Source of the DNA: Chloroflexia bacterium
Lineage (GTDB): Bacteria > Chloroflexota > Chloroflexia > Thermomicrobiales > UBA6265
DNA length: 64,000 nt
Direction: 5' to 3'
Assembly (NCBI GenBank): GCA_043427975.1
Contig: JBHWTK010000067.1
Coordinates: 16,523 to 80,522, forward strand
The notes beneath the pieces are model-generated. The model had not been told where the DNA came from and made no database searches. It saw only the letters and a program-made list of their open reading frames with translations. The stretch's first letter is position 1. Each line of letters starts with the position of its first letter. Positions 1-62,551 of this stretch are shown in pieces. The position numbers and the translations under genes were made by a program.

Positions 1-1600
1 CGTTGCGCGTGTTGATGGCTTCCTTGCGCTTGGCGTCTTCGGCGGCGTGCTCCTCAGCCTCCTGAACCATGCGCTTGACTTCATCCTCGCTCAGGCCGGA
101 GCTGCCGGCGATGGTGATCTTCTGTTCCTTGCCTGTGGCGGTGTCCTTGGCGGTGACGTTGAGGATGCCATTGGCGTCGATATCAAAGGTCACCTCAATC
201 TTCGGCACACCACGCGGTGCGGGCGGAATTCCATCGAGGATAAAGCGGCCGAGACTCTTGTTATCGGTGGCCATCGGGCGCTCACCCTGCAACACGTTGA
301 TCTCTACCTGCGGCTGGCTGTCGCTGGCCGTGGTGAATGTCTGGCTCTTGCGGGCCGGGATGGTGGTATTGCGCTCGATTAGCGGTGTCGCCACACCACC
401 AAGCGTCTCGATCGCCAGGGTAAGCGGCGTCACGTCCAGCAGCAGGATGTCCTTGACATCGCCGCCGAGCACACCACCCTGGATGGCGGCACCAAGCGCC
501 ACAACTTCGTCCGGGTTGATGCCCTTGTGCGGCTCCTTGCCGAAGAAGTCCTGCACGGTCTTCTGAACAATCGGCATGCGGGTCTGGCCACCAACGAGCA
601 GGGCTTCGTCCACCTCGCTCTTGCTGAGGCCGGCATCCTTGAGGGCCGATTCCATCGGGCCCTTGGTGCGGTTCACCAGGTCACTGGTGAGCGATTCCAG
701 CTTGGAGCGCGTGAGGGTGATATTCAGATGCTTCGGACCGCTGGCATCGGCCGTAATAAACGGCAGGTTGATATCGGTCTGCTGGGTGCTGGAAAGCTCG
801 ATCTTGGCCTTCTCGGCAGCTTCCTTCAGGCGCTGGAGCGCCATGCGGTCGTTGCGGAGGTCAACGCCTTCCTGCTTCTTGAACTCGTCGGCGAGCCAGT
901 TAATGATCACCTGGTCGAAGTCGTCACCACCCAGGTGGGTATCACCATTGGTGGCGAGCACCTGGAAGACGCCCTCGCTGAGGTCGAGGATGGAGATATC
1001 GTAGGTACCACCACCAAGGTCGTACACAGCGATCTTCTCATCCTTGTCCTGCTTCTCAAGGCCGTAGGCCAGGGCGGAAGCGGTGGGCTCGTTGATAATG
1101 CGCAGCACCTCAAGGCCAGCGATCCGGCCAGCATCCTTGGTGGCATCGCGCTGTGAGTTATCGAAGTACGCCGGTACGGTAATCACGGCCTTGTCCACGG
1201 TTTCACCGAGGTAGGCTTCCGCGTCCGCCTTCATCTTCTGCAGGATCATCGCGCTGACTTCCTGCGGGCTGTACCACTTGTCGCCCATCTTCACCTGCAC
1301 GTCGCCGTTCGGGGCGGCCTGCAGTGCGTACGGCACAAGTTCCTTGTCCTTGGCGATAGCAGGGTCGTTGAACTTGCGACCAATGAACCGCTTCACCGAG
1401 AAAATGGTGTTATCCGGGTTGGTTACCGCTTGCCGGCGGGCAAACCGCCCCACCAGGCGCTCGCCGGAGTTGGTGAGGGCCACGACCGAGGGCGTAAGTC
1501 GCTCGCCTTCGGCGTTGGGGATCACCACCGGCTCGCCACCTTCAATGGTGGCCATTACCGAGTTGGTTGTTCCGAGGTCAATACCGATTGTTCGTCCCAT
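1..1600 (-). CDS. dnaK: Molecular chaperone DnaK (Hsp70), N-terminal ~533 aa; C-terminus runs off the left window edge
   Basis: Absent from the ORF track because there is no stop in the window. Reverse complement from ATG at 1600-1598 reads [22 protein letters not shown]...[20 protein letters not shown]...[12 protein letters not shown]...[22 protein letters not shown] lies upstream. Follows grpE. Confidence 0.95.
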
Positions 1601-1649
1601 GTTGTCTCCTTTAGGTCTGTGTGGCTCACGCCACGTTTATTGAACGTGC

Positions 1650-2213
1650 TTACGCGTTGAACTCTTCGGGAGCGTTGCCGGTTTTCACCATGGCAGCACG
1701 CAGAAGGGTATCCCCCAGTTTGTAGCCCTTCTGGTACACCTCTACGACGTACTCGCCGCTGGTACCGGGCTCTACAGAAACTGCCTCGTGAATGGAGGGA
1801 TCGAATGCCGACCCCACTCCGCTCACTTCCTTCACACCAGCGCCCTCAAGCAACTGGTGGAATTTGGCCTGGATCATCTGGATTCCCTTGAACCAGCTAT
1901 CGTCGTGCTCGTTTTCCGGCACAGCCGCCATGGCCCGGTCCCAGTCATCGATAACGGGCAGGAACCGGCTAATGGCATTGGCAGTGAAGAGTTCCCCCAA
2001 CCGCAACTTCTCGGCATCGGTTCGCTTGCGATAGTTGATGAACTCTGCGCGGCTTCGCTGCAACTGGTCGAGGTATTCGTCCCGCTGGGCGACAAGCTTC
2101 TCGATCATCGAATCGGTATCATCGGACGTTTCACCGAACTCGCCTTCCAGCTCGTCGCCCTCCATATCATCCTCGAGGAATTCGTCATCGTTCCTTACGT
2201 CGTTATGCGTCAT
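1650..2213 (-). CDS. grpE: Nucleotide exchange factor GrpE
   Basis: 187-aa ORF with acidic N-terminus, coiled-coil RSRAEFINYRKRTDAEK and a GrpE C-terminal beta domain. Located between hrcA and dnaK. Confidence 0.95.
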   Translation of the reverse strand: MTHNDVRNDDEFLEDDMEGDELEGEFGETSDDTDSMIEKLVAQRDEYLDQLQRSRAEFINYRKRTDAEKLRLGELFTANAISRFLPVIDDWDRAMAAVPENEHDDSWFKGIQMIQAKFHQLLEGAGVKEVSGVGSAFDPSIHEAVSVEPGTSGEYVVEVYQKGYKLGDTLLRAAMVKTGNAPEEFNA

Positions 2214-2267
2214 TCAAACCTCTCCAATCGGCCGGGCCCGTGCCCAACCAGTACGAATTTTTCCTGT

Positions 2268-3314
2268 TTACGCGGAATACAAGTCGGCCATGAGGTCACT
2301 CATCAGCCGGGCCATGTACCGCACCGACGGGATACTGTGCCAGTAGCGCATGCGGGTTGGCCCAAGGACGCCCAAAATGCCCGTGACTTCGCCATCGACG
2401 CCATAGGTGGCAATTACAATGCCGAAGTTGCGCAGCGCCTGGGCGGGGTTCTCTTCGCCAATAAATACCTGCACATCGTTATCCGGGGTAAGCTGCGGAA
2501 GCAACTCTCCCAGGAATCCGGGTCCGGCCATAAGCTCCATCACCAGCTGGCCCTCGGCGCCCGCGAACTCCGGCTGGCGCAGCATTTTATCGATACCGCT
2601 ATGCCGTACGGGCATATCCTGGACCGAATCCATGGTGCGCAGCCCGCTGGCGATATGCTCCAACACAAACTGCACAACGCCCTGTGCGGTGGCGCTTATC
2701 GCCTCGATTTCCTGGCTGTTCAGTCCGCGTAATGCGCCAATCTGCTGGTCGGCAATACTGCTGAGCAGTGGCTGTTCCGCTTCCTCGGGAAGGTGCAGCA
2801 TCATCTGCCGAACCGCACTCTCCTGCGTCACCAGAATGAGCAACGCCAAACGCGGTTGCAGGGAAATCAGTTCGAAATGCCGCAACCGTGCCACGTGCGT
2901 TTTCGGTGCCGTCACAATGCTGGCCATACCCGAAGTACTGCTGAGGACGCTGGCGGCAAACTCCACCATGCTGTCCAGCTGGCCCTCGACCTGGCGGAAC
3001 TGATGGCGAATCATCACCTGGTCCGCTTGGGCCAACGACCGATTCGGCATCAGGTGGTGCACGTAGTACCGATATCCCTGGTCAGTCGGGATTCGTCCAC
3101 CAGAGGTATGTGGCTGGGCCACGTACCCCATGTGTTCCAGGGCAACCATCTCATTACGAATGGTCGCGCTGGAGATTGGTGCGCCGAACCGTGTCACCAA
3201 GGTTGCAGACCCCACGGGTTTCCCGGAATCCACATACTCGCGCACGAGAAGCTGCAGCAGCTTTTTGCGCCGCTCCGTCATCTCTGCCGGGCTATGTTGA
3301 ATCCGTTGGTCCAT
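2268..3314 (-). CDS. hrcA: Heat-inducible transcription repressor HrcA
   Basis: 348-aa ORF with N-terminal winged-helix RRKKLLQLLVREYVDSGKPVGSATL. First gene of hrcA-grpE-dnaK, with a CIRCE operator immediately upstream. Confidence 0.95.
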   Translation of the reverse strand: MDQRIQHSPAEMTERRKKLLQLLVREYVDSGKPVGSATLVTRFGAPISSATIRNEMVALEHMGYVAQPHTSGGRIPTDQGYRYYVHHLMPNRSLAQADQVMIRHQFRQVEGQLDSMVEFAASVLSSTSGMASIVTAPKTHVARLRHFELISLQPRLALLILVTQESAVRQMMLHLPEEAEQPLLSSIADQQIGALRGLNSQEIEAISATAQGVVQFVLEHIASGLRTMDSVQDMPVRHSGIDKMLRQPEFAGAEGQLVMELMAGPGFLGELLPQLTPDNDVQVFIGEENPAQALRNFGIVIATYGVDGEVTGILGVLGPTRMRYWHSIPSVRYMARLMSDLMADLYSA

Positions 3315-11116: not shown

Positions 11117-11884
11117 CTAGAAAAGGATCAGGGTAATGCCACCGATGAACGGGGTTGCCACCACCGCGAACCGGAGAAGCGACACCGGGGCGCGGCGGGT
11201 GAACTTCGCGCCGACATACGATCCGGCTGTCATGCCAATCGTCACGCCCGCCATGTGCAACAGCGCGAGGTCGCCGTGGCTCGCCAGCGCGAGGGCGCCA
11301 CTGGCACTAATGAAACAGAGCGCCAGCATGGTGGTACCTACCGCCTGAAGCAATGGCAGGCGCATAACGGTCATCAGTGCCAGCTGGATGAACGGCGCCA
11401 TACCCACGCCGAAAAATGCCGACGCCACGCCCCCCATCATGCCGACGCCCGTTCCAACCGTGGCCTGTCCGCCGGTGACGTGGTAGGTCTCGAGATCGGC
11501 AGGTTCACCAATGCGGGTGCCAAGTCGGATGCGGAGCCATACAAGGAACGCGAGGAAGAGCAACGCACCTCCTGCCGCCGGCTGGAGGATATGCTCCGGG
11601 ACAAGCTGGCTAAGGTCTGCGCCCAGAATCGCCCCCGCCGTACCACCGATCCCGAGGATCACACCGGGCTTAACCACGATGTTCCCCTCACGAAAATGCG
11701 AGATCGAGCCGGAGATGGTGGTGAACACCATCGCTCCGAGGGCAGTGCCAACCGCGGTATGGATGGGGAGACCAAAAACGAGGGTGAGCAGGCTCACCAT
11801 CACGCCGGCCCCACCAGCCCCGATAAACCCGATAATGACGCCAACCCCGAACGTGACGGCAACAAGCGTGAGCAGCAGGTCTAT
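11117..11884 (-). CDS. TauE/SafE family sulfite/anion exporter; start codon non-canonical or uncertain
   Basis: Polytopic membrane ORF. The track starts it at GTG 11803, but the family-typical first TM with GFIGAGGAG is encoded upstream in frame (IDLLLTLVAVTFGVGVIIGFIGAGGAG). No ATG/GTG/TTG is available there. Confidence 0.7.
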   Translation of the reverse strand: MDLLLTLVAVTFGVGVIIGFIGAGGAGVMVSLLTLVFGLPIHTAVGTALGAMVFTTISGSISHFREGNIVVKPGVILGIGGTAGAILGADLSQLVPEHILQPAAGGALLFLAFLVWLRIRLGTRIGEPADLETYHVTGGQATVGTGVGMMGGVASAFFGVGMAPFIQLALMTVMRLPLLQAVGTTMLALCFISASGALALASHGDLALLHMAGVTIGMTAGSYVGAKFTRRAPVSLLRFAVVATPFIGGITLILF

Positions 11885-36556: not shown

Positions 36557-37203
36557 CACCGTACTCGCCTATCCCACGCATTGTCCCCGGCACTGCGCAC
36601 CGCCAGCTCATCCATCGCATCCTCCGGTCCGACGTTCCGCCCGAAACACAGCGCATCGACCTGGTGACCACATCGTTCAAGCGTGTGAGCATCATCGACA
36701 GCGGAGAACCCCCTGCCGAGCGCACTGCCGAGGGCGATACAGCCATCCACGTGCTATGGCAGCATCAGGAGCACGGTGCCACGATCGAGATCGGCACCGA
36801 TCGTTATGCCATAGCGCCAGGTGATACCTCCATGATCCCCGCCGGAGACAGCTGGCGAATGCCTCCGCACACGCTGTTTATCGAGGTGGCGGTACGGAGG
36901 TCATCGCTCGCGCTGCCGATTCCTCCAACACATGGCGATTACCACTTCACAGGTCACAATCGTGAATCGCGCTACCCCGCCATGGGAACCGTGCAGCTCT
37001 CGCGCTGGAAGCTGAGCGAGAACCTTGCGATGCCAGCTCCGGACGCGGAACGCGTGCTTATCGGCCTCTACAACGACATCGCCCTCCTGCATCCCGGAGG
37101 CATTACGATGCTGCGAAAAGGCGAAACCAGTGTGACCCGCCCCGCAACCGGAGGGATCACACTGGTGCCGAATGGACTCTCGTACATGCTGGTTATCGAC
37201 TAA
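36553..37203 (+). CDS. Hypothetical protein, cupin-like
   Basis: Beta-rich segments (YAIAPGDTSMIPAGDSWRM; ITMLRKGETSV) resemble a cupin barrel. Weak call. Confidence 0.45.
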   Translation: MTPYSPIPRIVPGTAHRQLIHRILRSDVPPETQRIDLVTTSFKRVSIIDSGEPPAERTAEGDTAIHVLWQHQEHGATIEIGTDRYAIAPGDTSMIPAGDSWRMPPHTLFIEVAVRRSSLALPIPPTHGDYHFTGHNRESRYPAMGTVQLSRWKLSENLAMPAPDAERVLIGLYNDIALLHPGGITMLRKGETSVTRPATGGITLVPNGLSYMLVID

Positions 37204-38036
37204 CCACTGCGCTTGAGCAGTCCGGTTTTCTTGGCGTAGATCTCGCCACGCTGGAACAGGTACAGTCCCAGTGGCGGAAAAATGACGCCCATGATCAGCA
37301 GCGGCCACACGTTGTGCCACTGGCTCGCGAAGCTGGCACCTTCCAGCAATGCGGCCCGGATGCCGTTCAACGCGTAGTACACCGGGCTCACGTTGGCCAG
37401 CGGCTGCATCCAGCCGGGAAGCACATCCACGCTGTAGTAGATACCGCTCACCAGCAGCAGCACCGCCGTGAAGATGTACGTCACCTGTTGGCCCTTCTCC
37501 GGGCTCAGCAACGGCATCACTGCGGCGACCATCCCGAATCCCACCAGGGAGACAGAACAGATGGCCAGGATCATGATGGCCGCGCCGTAGTTCGCCTTCG
37601 ACAGCGAGAGGTCGAAGAAGAGCGAGATCGCCCCCAGCATGATGATGATACGCAGGATGCCGTACAGCACCGCGTACACACCCATACCGATCAGCTGGGT
37701 CGCACGGCTGGCCGGCGCCATAAAGGTGTACTCGATAGTTCCCTCCCAGCGCTCCCAGCTCACGGTTTCCGAGAGCAGGTCGAAGATCATGCTCAGGTAG
37801 CTCCAGATGAGCGTACCGATAAGCAGGAAGGTCGTCGCCTGCGCGGCCGCCTCGCCGCCGAAATTCACTCCAATGAAGCCAATGGTGAGGGCGTTCATGG
37901 TGCTGTATACCAGCCACACCACTTCCCAGAGGAAGTAGCGCTTGCTAAGAAAGTAGTTTCGCTGGGCGTATCCCCAGATCGCGATCAGTTCGCGTTGCCA
38001 CCCCGGTTTGTTCAGGTGGCCGTGGGTTATTTCCAT
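37200..38036 (-). CDS. ABC-2 type transporter permease
   Basis: 278-aa ORF with 6 TM segments. N-terminal WGYAQRNYFLSKRYFLWEVVW is typical of ABC-2 permeases. Abuts the ATPase gene. Confidence 0.8.
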   Translation of the reverse strand: MEITHGHLNKPGWQRELIAIWGYAQRNYFLSKRYFLWEVVWLVYSTMNALTIGFIGVNFGGEAAAQATTFLLIGTLIWSYLSMIFDLLSETVSWERWEGTIEYTFMAPASRATQLIGMGVYAVLYGILRIIIMLGAISLFFDLSLSKANYGAAIMILAICSVSLVGFGMVAAVMPLLSPEKGQQVTYIFTAVLLLVSGIYYSVDVLPGWMQPLANVSPVYYALNGIRAALLEGASFASQWHNVWPLLIMGVIFPPLGLYLFQRGEIYAKKTGLLKRSG

Positions 38037-38933
38037 CTATCCAACTCCTGCCCCAACCTCTACCGGCGAGGCCTGCTCTTCTTCCTGCTCCACCTTGCCG
38101 TTCTCCGATCCCTTCAGTTCCTCCGGGTCGAACTCCGCTTCATCCAGGCTGGTGCCGGTTGCCGCCATAAAGACCTCTTCCAGCGAATCTGATCCGTACT
38201 GCGCCTTCAGTTCGTCGGCGGTGCCCAAAGCGATCAGTTCACCATTCAGCAGGATGCCGATGCGGTCGCACAGCTCCTCTGCCTCGCCCATATCGTGCGT
38301 GCAGAGCAGGATCGACGAATCGTGCCCCTTGCGGATGTGCTGAACTAGCTTCTGCACATCCTTCTTGCTCCGCGGATCCAGACCCGTGGTCGGCTCGTCG
38401 AGCAGCATCAGCATCGGGCTGGTGAGCAGTGCGCGCGCCAGCGCAATCTTCTGCTGCATACCGCGGCTGAGGTGCTCCATCGGCTCGCCAATGCGCTTCA
38501 CATCGAACCCGATACTCTCCAGGATGTTGCGGATCTGCGGACGGCTCTCGCTATCGGTGACGCCGTACATCTTGGCGCCAAACAGCAGGTTCTCCAGCGA
38601 ACTCAGCTTCTTGAAGAAGCTCGCCTCCACGCTCACGCGGTTGATAAACCGCTGCACCGTGCGCGGATGTTTCACCGCGTCGATATCAAACACCTTCACC
38701 TCGCCGGCATCCGGCAGTGTGAGCGTGCTGATGACACGCACCAGGGTGCTCTTGCCCGAACCGTTCGGCCCCAGGATGCCGACAACCTCGCCGCGGTGAA
38801 TCGTCAGCGAAACACCCTTCAGCGCGTACGCGTATTCACCGCGCTTCTTCTTGAACTTCTTTTCCACATTTGTCATCACCAGGGCTTCGACGCCTGGCTG
38901 TAACTTGTTGATCACCTTTGATCCTTCCTCCAT
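38037..38933 (-). CDS. ABC transporter ATP-binding protein (ABC-2/DrrA-like subfamily)
   Basis: Walker A GPNGSGKST, signature LSRGMQQK, Walker B MLLDEPTTGLD, H-loop CTHD. Confidence 0.88.
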   Translation of the reverse strand: MEEGSKVINKLQPGVEALVMTNVEKKFKKKRGEYAYALKGVSLTIHRGEVVGILGPNGSGKSTLVRVISTLTLPDAGEVKVFDIDAVKHPRTVQRFINRVSVEASFFKKLSSLENLLFGAKMYGVTDSESRPQIRNILESIGFDVKRIGEPMEHLSRGMQQKIALARALLTSPMLMLLDEPTTGLDPRSKKDVQKLVQHIRKGHDSSILLCTHDMGEAEELCDRIGILLNGELIALGTADELKAQYGSDSLEEVFMAATGTSLDEAEFDPEELKGSENGKVEQEEEQASPVEVGAGVG

Positions 38934-38991: not shown

Positions 38992-39023
38992 CACAAAAAA
39001 ACCCTAACGAATGCTCGCCAGGG
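38992..39023 (-). terminator. Intrinsic terminator inside the ABC-2 exporter leader (candidate attenuator)
   Basis: Minus RNA reads CCCUGGCGA-GCAU-UCGUUAGGG (9 bp, 2 G.U) followed by UUUUUUUGUG, about 58 nt upstream of the ATPase ATG. Confidence 0.7.
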
Positions 39024-39055
39024 GTCAGTGTGCTCGTTCGGTTGTGCGCTCGGAC

Positions 39056-39145
39056 CTAGATCGCAACCTCCACCGAATGGACACACTGCTCCCGTGCTGT
39101 GCTGCCGATAGGCAGTTGACGGCATCGGGTGAATCCGTGTGTCAT
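39056..39145 (-). CDS. Candidate leader peptide uORF (29 codons)
   Basis: GAGGU lies 9 nt upstream of the ATG. Sequence is MTHGFTRCRQLPIGSTAREQCVHSVEVAI. It contains the shared motif GGGAGCAGUGUG in frame as (R)EQC(V). Confidence 0.35.
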   Translation of the reverse strand: MTHGFTRCRQLPIGSTAREQCVHSVEVAI

Positions 39146-39200: not shown

Positions 39201-39229
39201 AGAATACGGAATACGAATTGAAAAGTCAA
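39201..39229 (-). promoter_or_regulatory. Candidate promoter of the ABC-2 exporter leader
   Basis: Minus strand reads TTGACT-N17-TATTCT, starting right at the DUF1801 stop codon. Confidence 0.5.
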
Positions 39230-60588: not shown

Positions 60589-60613
60589 GAGCCCGGGAAT
60601 AAAACCCGGGCTC
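60589..60613. terminator. Bidirectional hairpin terminator between convergent genes
   Basis: Perfect 9-bp stem GAGCCCGGG/CCCGGGCTC with loop AATAAAA. Abuts the ABC-F stop codon. Confidence 0.6.
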
Positions 60614-62313
60614 TACTTTTCCCGTTTCCTCACCGGTTCCGATGCGGCGGCGGGGTGGCGCAGGCCGAGGGTGAGCGGGGTGCCTTTCTCCGCGTTCTCG
60701 ACGGCATAGGTGTAGCCGCCCGGATAATCGCGCACGATGCCGTCCTCAATCGCGAGGATGCGGTTGCAGACCTTGTCCATGAAATAGCGATCATGCGAGA
60801 TGCTGATGATGGTGCCCTCGAACGCCAGCAGCGCTTCTTCAAGCTTCTCGACACTGGCGAGGTCGAGGTTATTGGTCGGTTCGTCCAGCACCAGCAGGTT
60901 GGCACCGCTCAGCATCATCAGTGCGATCTGCAGCCGGGCCCGTTCCCCACCGCTCAGGTTCTTCACCTGGTTCATCGCGTCAACACGATCAAAGCCCATA
61001 CCCACCAGCGCGCTGAGCGCCTGCTGTTCATTGAGCGCCTTCACCTTGCGCACGAGTTCTAGCGGCTGGGAATTGCCATCCAGCGATGCCTGCATCTGGT
61101 CGTACCACGCCATCTGGATACTCGCGCCGATGCCAATCCGGCCGGAGGAAGGCGCGAGTTCGCCGGTGAGGCACTTCATCAGGCTGGTTTTACCGGCACC
61201 GTTCGGCCCGATGATGCCTACCCGCTCTCCATGCCGCACCAGCACATCGAACGGTTGCAGCACAGTGCGGTCGCCATAGCGGATGCTGACGTTGCTGCCC
61301 GTGACCACGTTCGTGGATCCCCGTTCCGCCTGGAAATCGATATTGATGTTGCGGCGCTGCATTTGCGGCCATGGCTGGGCATCGAGCCGGGCGCGTTCCT
61401 CCGCCATTCGGTTGCGTTGCTGCTCGGCGCGGGTAGCGAACTTCGGATTCTGCCGCGCCCACTGGGTCAGTTCCTCGGCGCAGGCCTTCAGCTTCAGGTA
61501 TTCGCGTTCGGCCAGCTCGCGGAGTTCCAGTTCACGTTCAAGCCGATCCCGCTTCTGCTGCTGGTAGGCGCTGTAGTTGCCGGTGTACCGGCGGATGCGG
61601 CCATCCTCCAGTTCAACGATCGAGTTGGCGACCCGGTCGATCATGTAGCGGTCGTGCGAGATCATGCACACCGCGCCGCGATACTGCGTGTTGAGCCAAT
61701 CCTCCAGCCAGGCGCGGGCATCGACATCGAAGTGGTTATCTGGCTCGTCCAGCAGCAGCACATCCGGCGGGTCCAGCAGGAAGCGGGCGACATCCACCAG
61801 CTTCCGTTCGCCACCGGAGAGCGTGCCGATTGATTGGTCCCAGCGGTGTTCCGGAATATGCAATTCGCCGAGCACCTGCTGCAACTGATCGGTGGCATCG
61901 TTGCCGGCGAGTGCGTCGAGCCGATCCAGCAAGGCCGCCTGGGTGTCCAGCAGCGCTGCCATCTCGTCGTCAGTCATCGGCTGGCCAAACCGTTCCTCAA
62001 TTTCCAGGAGCTGGTATTCCACGCTCTCGGAATCGCCGATTGCCTCGCCGAGCACTTCGCGAACCGTCTTGTGGGCCGGGAGTGTCGATTCCTGCTGCAG
62101 GTATCCGATGCTGATGCCATTGGCGTGCGTGATTGCTCCAGACTGCGGGTGCAACTCCTTCGTCAGCAGGCGAAAGAGGGTGGACTTGCCCGTGCCATTC
62201 TCTCCGATCAACGCGAGGCGGTCGCCAGACTGGATGGTGAATGAAAGTCCCTGGAAAAGCTGGTTACCGCCGTGGGCATAGGCGATATCCGCAGCCTGAA
62301 TGAGAAGTACCAT
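60613..62313 (-). CDS. ABC-F family ATPase (two NBDs, no TM domain; ribosome-associated type)
   Basis: 566 aa. Two Walker A motifs (GENGTGKST, GPNGAGKTS), two signatures (LSGGERK, LSGGERAR) and a charged interdomain linker (QQQKRDRLERELELRELAEREYLKLK...). Confidence 0.9.
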   Translation of the reverse strand: MVLLIQAADIAYAHGGNQLFQGLSFTIQSGDRLALIGENGTGKSTLFRLLTKELHPQSGAITHANGISIGYLQQESTLPAHKTVREVLGEAIGDSESVEYQLLEIEERFGQPMTDDEMAALLDTQAALLDRLDALAGNDATDQLQQVLGELHIPEHRWDQSIGTLSGGERKLVDVARFLLDPPDVLLLDEPDNHFDVDARAWLEDWLNTQYRGAVCMISHDRYMIDRVANSIVELEDGRIRRYTGNYSAYQQQKRDRLERELELRELAEREYLKLKACAEELTQWARQNPKFATRAEQQRNRMAEERARLDAQPWPQMQRRNINIDFQAERGSTNVVTGSNVSIRYGDRTVLQPFDVLVRHGERVGIIGPNGAGKTSLMKCLTGELAPSSGRIGIGASIQMAWYDQMQASLDGNSQPLELVRKVKALNEQQALSALVGMGFDRVDAMNQVKNLSGGERARLQIALMMLSGANLLVLDEPTNNLDLASVEKLEEALLAFEGTIISISHDRYFMDKVCNRILAIEDGIVRDYPGGYTYAVENAEKGTPLTLGLRHPAAASEPVRKREK

Positions 62314-62331: not shown

Positions 62332-62370
62332 ACAAACAAAAATCCCTCCGACAAATGCGTCGAAGGGAGG
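62332..62370 (-). terminator. Intrinsic terminator 18 nt upstream of the ABC-F start codon (candidate attenuator)
   Basis: Minus RNA reads (CC)UCCCUUCGAC-GCAUUU-GUCGGAGGGA (10 bp) followed by UUUUUGUUUGU. The single non-Watson-Crick pair is G.U on the minus RNA and C.A on the plus, which makes the structure strand-specific. Confidence 0.7.
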
Positions 62371-62411
62371 TCAAACACCCTGATTTGATGCTGATCGTTA
62401 GCCAACGCTCG

Positions 62412-62492
62412 TTACATCAACCAGGCACACTGCTCCCATATAGTGGCCGTTCGTGGTGAAACCGCGATGGTGGCTTTCATAAAGAACTGCAT
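62412..62492 (-). CDS. Candidate leader peptide uORF (26 codons)
   Basis: GGGGA lies 5 nt upstream of the ATG. Sequence is MQFFMKATIAVSPRTATIWEQCAWLM. It contains GGGAGCAGUGUG in frame as (W)EQC(A). Confidence 0.4.
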   Translation of the reverse strand: MQFFMKATIAVSPRTATIWEQCAWLM

Positions 62493-62522: not shown

Positions 62523-62551
62523 ATGCTACGGGATGGGCCGGCCGGGGTCAA
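62523..62551 (-). promoter_or_regulatory. Candidate promoter of the ABC-F leader
   Basis: Minus strand reads TTGACC-N17-TAGCAT, immediately after the sodC terminator. Confidence 0.5.

Follow-up and report, generated by a model that had tools for sequence, protein, structure and literature searches.

A paralogous leader family with a conserved 12-nucleotide core upstream of an ABC-F gene and a DrrAB-type exporter operon in Thermomicrobiales

Introduction

In the trp, his and phe attenuators, a segment linked to an upstream open reading frame (uORF) competes with the 3′ arm of a terminator for its 5′ arm; read-through follows when the ribosome stalls early, termination when it stands at the uORF end. 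Arrest peptides typically carry their key residues 8-12 positions from the active site. Exporter and ABC-F genes are also found under ribosome-mediated leader attenuation, as in bmrB-bmrCD (PMC4191407) and msrDL-msrD (PMC10314930). Here we describe two leaders of a Chloroflexia bacterium (Thermomicrobiales), a member of Chloroflexota, a phylum with almost no characterised gene regulation. They lie in a stretch of 64,000 nucleotides of contig JBHWTK010000067.1 (assembly GCA_043427975.1, positions 16,523 to 80,522 of the forward strand), referred to below as the window. Leader D precedes a drrAB-like exporter operon, leader F precedes an ABC-F gene, and both contain the 12-mer GGGAGCAGUGUG (GGGAGCAGTGTG). 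Judged by sequence, this 12-mer is the conserved core of a single leader-switch family, composed of a uORF and a terminator, that stands before the ABC-F gene and the DrrAB-type exporter. Both leaders are probably ribosome-mediated transcription attenuators in which the 12-mer would act as the antiterminator strand.

Two leaders with a shared 12-mer and a common layout

The 12-mer occurs in exactly two exact copies in the window, at 39082-39093 in leader D and at 62426-62437 in leader F, both on the minus strand, as are all leader features given below. As the first-pass annotation had reported, both copies lie in the frame of a uORF, where Glu-Gln-Cys occupies codons 19-21 of leader D and codons 20-22 of leader F. 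Copy 1 extends from the last two bases of codon 18 (Arg, CGG) to the first base of codon 22 (Val, GUC), and copy 2 from the last two bases of codon 19 (Trp, UGG) to the first base of codon 23 (Ala, GCC). Each leader has the same layout, comprising a match to a sigma-70-like promoter, a short open reading frame (ORF), a G+C-rich hairpin and a run of U, followed by the gene; a terminator-like hairpin with a U-tract is predicted in both.

Leader D runs from 39229 down to 38934. A consensus scan alone places its promoter-like site (TTGACT, 17-nt spacer, TATTCT) at 39201-39229. The uORF, assigned from sequence and frame, encodes MTHGFTRCRQLPIGSTAREQCVHSVEVAI in 29 codons plus TAG (39056-39145), and its codon 12 (CCT, 39110-39112) specifies a Pro that is invariant in the family and is the proposed last stall position that leaves the motif bare. 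Downstream lies segment B, CACACUGACCCC (39021-39032), formed by the 5′ flank and the first three bases of the terminator stem, and the leader is closed by the intrinsic terminator CCCUGGCGA-GCAU-UCGUUAGGG followed by U7 (38995-39023; hairpin 39023-39002, U-tract 38995-39001). Leader F runs from 62551 down to 62314, with a promoter-like site found by consensus scan (TTGACC, 17-nt spacer, TAGCAT) at 62523-62551; the hexamers TTGAC and TAGGAT/TAGCAT recur upstream in its orthologues. Its uORF, likewise assigned from sequence and frame, encodes MQFFMKATIAVSPRTATIWEQCAWLM in 26 codons plus TAA (62412-62492), with the invariant Pro at codon 13 (CCA, 62454-62456). Segment B of leader F is UUUGACCUCCC (62365-62375), formed by the 5′ flank and the first four bases of the stem, and the intrinsic terminator is UCCCUUCGAC-GCAUUU-GUCGGAGGGA followed by U5 (62338-62368; hairpin 62368-62343, U-tract 62338-62342).

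The distance between motif and terminator stem, earlier given as 58 and 55 nt, is indeed 58 nt in leader D; in leader F it is 57 nt, and 55 nt is obtained only if the arm begins at CCUCCC. Counted from the first base of the Glu codon, the stem lies 68 nt away in both leaders. A common Thr-Ala before the motif does not survive alignment, as the pair is out of register, at -3/-2 in leader D and at -5/-4 in leader F (codons numbered from the motif Glu as 0). Neither the loop letters CGA(C)GCAU nor the GGGGA that follows the U-tract, both seen in the window, is conserved across orthologous leaders, and in leader F the GGGGA is the Shine-Dalgarno sequence of the ABC-F gene.

Taken by itself, and found post hoc, the 12-mer match is suggestive. 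The first-pass estimate of about 0.004 for its occurrence by chance is borne out by simulation: a shared word of at least 12 bases arose in 14 of 5000 shuffles of both leaders, and 32 of about 4900 random pairs of real window stretches have such a word in common, so that the overall chance is about 0.003-0.007. A coincidental match between unrelated leaders would sit well enough with a post hoc find of this lone probability, and with the fact that only three bases are identical beyond the nine that are invariant in the whole family. Such a coincidence is nevertheless extremely improbable, being refuted by the cross-family profiles and the 65 related loci described below and by the shared peptide family and geometry.

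The three motif bases that are not family-invariant are the C and A of the variable codon between Glu and Cys and the U of UGU. In leader D they agree with leader F and with the F-type leader (upstream of ABC-F) of locus L001, its closest relative (GEQCV), and with no other D-type leader (upstream of drrA). Both the variable codon CAG and the Val codon GTC of leader D are unique among D-type leaders and find their match in F-type leaders of the same clade (leader F; L001, 1362-1375, GEQCV). Sequence conversion between the D and F leaders inside one genome could lie behind these bases, the alternative being chance.

Homology and distribution of the leader family

Cross-family profiles were built with nhmmer from leaders of other genomes only, with the window sequences excluded, and the window was searched on both strands. 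The profile of ABC-F leaders matched leader F with E=4e-19 and leader D with E=2e-6; the profile of drrA leaders matched leader F with E=1.2e-7 and leader D with E=9.5e-7. Both profiles match the two leaders over about 115-130 nt, and neither finds a third match in the 64-kb window on either strand. The two leaders thus share a paralogous element of about 120 nt, of which the 12-mer is the part conserved best. The proposal of a paralogous cis-regulatory leader common to the ABC-F gene and the exporter gains its support from these profiles and from conservation in orthologues.

Relatives of the ABC-F gene were taken from species genomes and comprise 14 loci with 59-87% protein identity, all in Thermomicrobiales/Chloroflexia assemblies. 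In 12 of them the gene is preceded by a uORF of the form [FY]-x-K-A-T-I-A-[VTI]-S-P-x5-W-E-[QKE]-C-A and then by a terminator. Upstream of L007 and L010, two Thermomicrobiales orthologues with 60-62% identity, a leader of this family cannot be recognised, so the element is not universal for the ABC-F gene. The relatives of drrA are 80 metagenome loci with 68-82% identity. Those with enough upstream sequence have a uORF, for instance MSSIFYRISPPLGAELWEECALLTCEPD or MTSSGLYILRIPSGLLAGEGCALLTVVPD, and a terminator after it. Alignment of the F-type and D-type peptides (n=22) shows no exception at Pro(-7), Glu(0) or Cys(+2) and at least 90% conservation of Ala(+3). The leader D peptide aligns with those of the D-type drrA orthologues at Pro(-7), Glu(0) and Cys(+2) and has a tail of equal length. 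Some C-termini, too, are common to the two gene contexts, with EECALLTTVAPD upstream of ABC-F and EECALLTTVPD upstream of drrA, each directly before the stop. The putative attenuator unit consists of a promoter, a uORF of 26-33 codons and an intrinsic terminator about 30-45 nt past the uORF stop.

At the nucleotide level, the degenerate core GGGARNNGUGYGYC (GGGARNNGTGYGYC) occurs once each in 65 of 101 related loci, in the orientation of the gene and, where it could be located, upstream of the matched gene; all 65 are Thermomicrobiales/Chloroflexia genomes or metagenome contigs. In the window it is found in the two leaders only. The motif is therefore conserved in orthologous leaders of related species for both genes, and the search for further copies that the first-pass annotation had proposed came out positive in these related loci. 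In a collection of 5.8 billion proteins, 28 clusters (28-72 amino acids) match the leader peptides; all are F-type or D-type, and their sources name them 'hypothetical protein' or not at all. Looked-up clusters stand before an ABC-F gene (L102-L109) or before drrAB (L110-L113), and the expectation that hits precede transporter or ABC-F genes agrees with the four peptide clusters looked up, for which no other type of downstream gene was seen. In L110-L113 the gene order of the window, namely an Arf-like GTPase, a DUF1801 gene, the leader and drrAB, is retained. A search of the whole window at the Rfam gathering score returned no match, in keeping with the earlier remark that the element is not a described RNA family; Rfam searches with the two leaders singly gave chance-level matches only (E>=3), and a literature search found no description of this leader family.

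Several loci show further features around the leader. In L102-L105 (1-3800), which represent one lineage, prfA (RF-1) and prmC (release-factor methyltransferase) are the immediate upstream neighbours of the F-type leader and its ABC-F gene, an arrangement that may be coincidental. In distant drrA loci (L046, L047, L049, L050, L051 and L053, about 1250-3000; L060-L101, e.g. L084 2700-2990) the leader does not adjoin drrA, and the terminator is separated from drrA by 1-3 tandem small ORFs of about 75-100 amino acids, which the window lacks. The tandem copies in L050 have LGRWL[IV]xxGTR[IV] in common. In the group 3 drrA loci a single Arg/Glu-rich ORF of 73-90 amino acids lies between leader and drrA instead. 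No Pfam match was obtained for the small ORFs between leader and drrA. L038, L042 and L044 have another, longer uORF (MQQHQIQLNAVRIAARW...GARCLPSG...) about 400 nt upstream of drrA, from which the motif is absent; this may be a replaced or highly diverged leader.

Peptide-level and nucleotide-level constraint

The frame, length and stop of the uORF are conserved in orthologues, and a purine-rich Shine-Dalgarno-like stretch, read by eye, lies at most 16 nt from several orthologous uORF starts. Across codons -17 to -7 of the F-type leaders, the pairwise differences at codon positions 1, 2 and 3 are 0.17, 0.19 and 0.44. The N-terminal [FY]xKATIA[VTI]SP of these leaders is conserved as a peptide, with Lys, Ala, Ser and Pro each encoded by several synonymous codons. 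This pattern of substitution marks the uORF as translated, with selection acting on part of its peptide. Pro(-7) is invariant in 22 of 22 aligned peptides, with all four Pro codons in use, and it stands exactly 7 codons before the Glu in 21 of the 22, the residues between them varying freely. In the five codons between Pro and motif the position differences are 0.46, 0.42 and 0.44, a pattern that has no positional bias and is combined with a fixed number of codons.

The motif itself behaves differently, with position differences of 0.18, 0.03 and 0.11; the third-position value of 0.11 compares with 0.44 upstream. All 28 Ala codons at +3 are GCC, the variable codon ends in G without exception, and Glu(0) is GAG in 27 of 30. 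The invariance of Glu, Cys and Ala is fully explained by the invariance of the nucleotides; the converse fails. Group 3, about 30 drrA loci (L060-L101), has a conserved uORF of 28 codons, MH[IV]xxTNIG[IV]PVFGGEVRPEVRxVAMRT followed by a stop, that keeps the core bases GGGGAGAGGUGCGUC / GGGGGAGAGGUGCGUC and reads them in another frame (e.g. L084 2450-2650). Only L074 in this group, with one G fewer, reads the core as G-E-R-C-V. In folds of four group 3 leaders (L084, L062, L091 and L070), the motif pairs with the region of the uORF start and is followed by a strong hairpin with a poor U-tract.

These data bear on the possibility that the motif is an arrest peptide, in which the ribosome would stall on [W/G]-E-x-C-A with a Pro seven residues upstream, with or without a drug, and so set the fold of the RNA. 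The invariant Pro, Glu and Cys and the nearly invariant Ala in 22 peptides from two gene contexts would fit such a peptide, as would the equal use of UGU and UGC for Cys and the freedom of codon choice at Pro; the key residues of such peptides typically lie 8-12 positions from the active site (TnaC, PMC8429421). The codon data fit it less well, for the constancy of GCC, of the third-base G and of third positions generally accounts for the residues and not the other way round, and the group 3 leaders retain the bases while reading them in a different frame. A ribosome on the motif, moreover, leaves the terminator in place in every fold, so that a stall there would switch the genes off or tighten the off state. 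The arrest-peptide explanation is considered unlikely. From the sequence comparison we conclude that the 12-mer is primarily an RNA element inside a coding region, and that a peptide-level sensor, if any, would lie upstream of it and end at the invariant Pro.

The tail of the uORF raises a second peptide-based explanation. Among 18 D-type leaders the last codons are near-fixed at the nucleotide level (CCU in 14, GAC in 13 and UGA in 14, with C after the stop), and several F-type leaders also finish in Pro-Asp-UGA. As a matter of speculation, this ending may slow release and keep the ribosome between the motif and the terminator. In a termination-arrest sensor of the TnaC kind, release at the poor stop Pro-Asp-UGA-C would be inhibited by a ligand or drug that W-E-x-C-A-L detects in the exit tunnel, and the ribosome held at the stop would remodel the leader. 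Beside the near-fixed CCU-GAC-UGA-C tail of D-type leaders and its F-type counterparts, such a sensor would agree with a Trp or Gly placed 11-12 residues before the last residue, as W12 is in TnaC (PMC8429421), and with a few leaders (L030, L056) in which a ribosome at the stop codon lowers the terminator probability. Both window leaders lack the ending, however, finishing in AWLM-UAA (leader F) and VEVAI-UAG (leader D), as do L001-L003, L009 and L012, and a TnaC-like sensor therefore cannot explain the 12-mer shared here. The family also has an intrinsic terminator with a predicted alternative pairing in place of a Rho site, and a ribosome near the stop is at least 13 nt away from the terminator stem (stop-to-stem distance 26-44 nt; footprint about +17 nt, PMC6238534). 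A TnaC-like sensor is judged improbable, though it could apply to those relatives that end in Pro-Asp-UGA.

Predicted pairing of the motif with the terminator

Three segments of the leader can be distinguished: A, the 12-mer in the uORF; B, the flank and base of the terminator 5′ arm; and C, the terminator 3′ arm. In nearly every leader A is complementary to B, which gives the motif a likeness to the 3′ arm of the terminator itself; L030 may serve as an example, with UGGGAGGAGUG as A and CGGGAGGAGUU as the 3′ arm. The pairs join GGGAG(G) with (C)CUCCC, CUUCCC or CUCUUC, and GUGYGCC with GGCRCAC, and the variable motif bases sit in a predicted internal loop between two A:B sub-helices. Duplex energies range from -12 to -26 kcal/mol and always involve GGGAG with CUCCC-like bases of the terminator arm. 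Because A complements B and mimics C, the A:B pairing would constitute the antiterminator and the B:C pairing the terminator.

Leader D is predicted to form GGG:CCC and CAGUGUG:CACACUG with its segment B at 39021-39032, with an energy of -19.9 kcal/mol that only 0.5% of shuffles reach. Its unique CAGUGUG is matched by its own, equally unique CACACUG, and this B strand is the best of 30 for the A strand of leader D. In leader F, GGGAG pairs with CUCCC (62365-62369) at the base of the terminator, around an inner hairpin CCUGGUUGAUG ... CAUCAAAUCAGG (62379-62425) that encloses the uORF stop codon; the inner hairpin is a prediction of the minimum-free-energy and centroid folds. Among D-type leaders, permuting the A:B partners gives poorer pairs than the cognate combinations (p=0.01). 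When the leaders are aligned by sequence only, the five GGGAG:CUCCC positions are paired in 91% of cells, compared with 59-81% at slid registers. The register of segment B differs between subfamilies.

Covariation is seen in the terminator helix throughout the family: 6 of 7 pairs have changes on both sides, and none of 500 shuffles reached the observed score. The helix begins 64-71 nt from the Glu codon in 25 of the 26 leaders measured. Full-length folds give 25 of 29 leaders a terminator probability of at least 0.85, with A paired to upstream uORF sequence; candidate partners occupy a plausible position, -30 to -50 nt, in D-type leaders. In folds of transcripts truncated before the 3′ arm, A is paired to B in most leaders. 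With MAFFT alignments as input, either of whole leaders or of the stretch from A to B, RNAalifold found a trivial local stem and no more than part of the terminator.

A site for a trans-acting factor, whether a protein, a small ligand or the anti-Shine-Dalgarno sequence of 16S rRNA, would also account for bases that are near-invariant across lineages and reading frames, and the motif does contain a Shine-Dalgarno-like GGGAGG opposite an anti-Shine-Dalgarno-like CCUCCC in segment B. Yet the alignments yield no conserved structured aptamer and Rfam no match, no linked candidate regulator gene was seen among the loci examined, and complementarity to the base of the terminator already accounts for the composition of the motif. 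A factor site is very doubtful. The first-pass annotation had offered an arrest motif, an antiterminator strand and a protein or ligand site side by side; the antiterminator strand emerges as the best supported of the three, and nothing in the data calls for a protein or ligand site.

Ribosome position and a possible switch

To mimic a ribosome in the folds, the bases from -12 to about +15 nt relative to the peptidyl-tRNA site (P-site) were kept unpaired; inverse toeprints place the ribosome 3′ edge at about +17 nt from the P-site (PMC6238534). In equilibrium folds with this mask, the terminator of leader D is lost with the P-site at -14 to -7 and is back from -5 onward, and several D-type leaders behave alike. 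Co-transcriptional snapshots were then modelled with transcripts ending before the 3′ arm, the score being the probability that the terminator base is held by A. With no ribosome, this probability has a mean of 0.26 in F-type and 0.61 in D-type leaders (leader F, 0.20). With the P-site at -8/-7, where the F-type value peaks, the means are 0.57-0.58 for F-type and 0.77-0.85 for D-type (leader F, 0.77-0.79). A ribosome on the motif (0, +3) reduces all three values to 0.00, and one at the uORF stop gives means of 0.16 and 0.66, respectively (leader F, 0.00). The Pro codon begins exactly 21 nt before the Glu codon and is, for that reason, the last P-site position that leaves the motif bare, which would explain the fixed spacing with free intervening residues.

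From these results we infer the site of the stall, the direction of the switch and the inducer as follows. In the uninduced state, the ribosome would cross A and proceed to the end of the uORF while the polymerase makes B and C; A:B pairing would be prevented, the B:C terminator would form and transcription would end. On induction, the ribosome would be held within the first 12 codons or so, as far as the Pro 7 codons before the Glu. The upstream partner of A would then be covered and A itself just exposed, so that A:B could form once B is made, and RNA polymerase would read through into the ABC-F or drrAB genes. The trigger is likely to be inhibition of translation by ribosome-targeting antibiotics or a comparable stress. 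Translation inhibitors are suggested as the signal because an ABC-F gene and an exporter both use the leader and because bmrB-bmrCD and msrDL-msrD provide precedents.

Several observations weigh against attenuation with the 12-mer as antiterminator strand. The equilibrium mask folds keep the terminator in every F-type leader at any ribosome position, and since equilibrium always favours the terminator there, the model needs kinetic trapping in these leaders; it is only with the truncated transcripts that they show an effect of the ribosome. In D-type leaders, where a ribosome at the stop codon leaves A bare, the block of A:B pairing by that ribosome would have to be steric. A is invariant, so there is almost no A:B covariation, and among F-type leaders permuted A:B pairs did as well as cognate ones (p=0.29). 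By RNAduplex, the candidate upstream partner of A, which would act as anti-antiterminator, was no better than shuffles, and shuffles also matched the whole-leader folding energies (z=-1.2 and +0.1). Any explanation of the CCU-GAC-UGA-C ending, invariant in its nucleotides in most relatives, is uncertain, and the invariance of Glu and Cys could equally reflect a function of the peptide. The model, finally, is an in-silico one for these organisms and assumes intrinsic termination in Chloroflexota.

An intermediate position between RNA element and peptide can be formulated as dual coding. The invariant bases would both act as the antiterminator strand and encode the heart of a novel class of ribosome arrest or sensor peptides, Pro-x6-Glu-x-Cys-Ala, which in most relatives would finish at a programmed poor stop (Pro-Asp-UGA-C). 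Such a peptide would answer a specific antibiotic or metabolite, and one sensor would co-ordinate a ribosome-acting ABC-F protein and an exporter in Chloroflexota. This is put forward tentatively, as something that on balance we do not expect.

Two further points concern the codons of the uORF. Sensing of Trp or Cys starvation was considered and rejected, as each residue is represented by a single codon, many members have Gly or Arg in place of Trp, and no biosynthetic genes lie downstream. Separately, codons 7-9 of leader D (39125-39133) read Arg-Cys-Arg and fit the +x+ macrolide stalling motif (PMC12583479); this tripeptide, which orthologous leaders do not share, lies within the predicted antitermination window.

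Downstream genes

The gene after leader F (60613-62313, minus strand) matches NF000355 (NCBIfam ribo_prot_ABC_F, 'ribosomal protection-like') with 419.9 bits against a cut-off of 380. The protein comprises two ABC_tran domains and an ABC_tran_Xtn linker, which is the domain architecture of ARE ABC-F proteins. Among solved proteins it is closest to EttA, followed by YheS, Uup and VmlR. None of the named ARE ABC-F models attains its own cut-off with this protein. The operon after leader D (37200-38933, minus strand) consists of a drrA-like ATPase gene (start GTG 38915 or ATG 38933, end 38037) followed by an ABC-2 permease gene (38036-37200). The domains are PF00005 and PF01061, in the order of ATPase then membrane protein that characterises DrrAB-type ABC-2 exporters, and the best model matches, TIGR01188 and TIGR01247, are both under cut-off. 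The ABC-F protein and the DrrAB-type exporter are, by sequence, two differing putative resistance determinants. Elsewhere in the window, ARAGORN calls a 92-nt tRNA-Cys (11203-11294, minus strand) that overlaps long ORFs, and the Rfam gathering search finds no tRNA in the window; the call is probably a false positive or an atypical gene.

Comparison with known systems

The duplication of the same putative attenuator module onto an ABC-F factor and a DrrAB-type exporter points to a small translation-stress regulon. The family also offers a compact test case for separating peptide-level from RNA-level constraint, with the invariant Pro as a ruler and a motif that is read in two frames, and it is suitable for Rfam or annotation pipelines, the peptides being annotated at present only as hypothetical proteins of 28-72 amino acids. 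No general concept is changed, since in Firmicutes it is well established that ABC-F and exporter genes come under ribosome-mediated attenuation.

The logic of competing segments is shared with the trp, his and phe attenuators. The window leaders differ from these in having no run of regulatory codons, with a single Trp and a single Cys only, in preceding ABC-F and exporter genes instead of biosynthetic ones, and in placing the antiterminator strand in the coding part of the uORF. Drug-dependent arrest peptides of the Erm, Msr and Cat/Cml leader classes have stalling motifs such as IFVI, IAVV and +x+. By sequence, the leader peptides show no clear match to a known arrest class; the TIAVSP of F-type leaders resembles the IAVV class of ErmAL1. 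The MsrDL leader peptide, reportedly very short with 6 residues, is unrelated to the window peptides, whose family has uORFs of 26-33 codons. Otherwise the streptococcal msrDL-msrD system is similar, in that a leader peptide and a Rho-independent terminator precede an ABC-F gene and a stalled ribosome prevents termination (PMC10314930). In msrDL the stalled ribosome itself obstructs the terminator, whereas in the window leaders the ribosome is out of reach and a separate antiterminator strand would be needed.

The bmrB leader of the bmrCD multidrug ABC exporter of Bacillus subtilis has no sequence similarity to the window leaders, and its terminator lies within the leader ORF, in contrast to 26-44 nt past the stop in the window family (PMC4191407). 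BmrCD is a type I exporter heterodimer and the window operon is of the DrrAB/ABC-2 type; unlike bmrB, the window family is predicted to control an ABC-F gene as well. With TnaC, most relatives have in common a conserved aromatic residue 11-12 positions before a Pro-containing C-terminus and a UGA stop (PMC8429421), but both window leaders are without that ending and an intrinsic terminator takes the place of Rho. The ToiL uORF of the E. coli topAI-yjhQ operon (PMC12121999) is likewise a regulatory uORF, a proposed sensor of stalling by several antibiotic classes, and differs from the window leaders in organism, sequence and downstream genes. Set beside these systems, the two leaders belong to a new, taxonomically restricted family of Thermomicrobiales/Chloroflexota that combines a peptide with an RNA switch of a well-known kind. 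Its unusual traits are the use of one module on two resistance-type operons and an antiterminator strand embedded in a conserved uORF, which in one lineage is read in a shifted frame.

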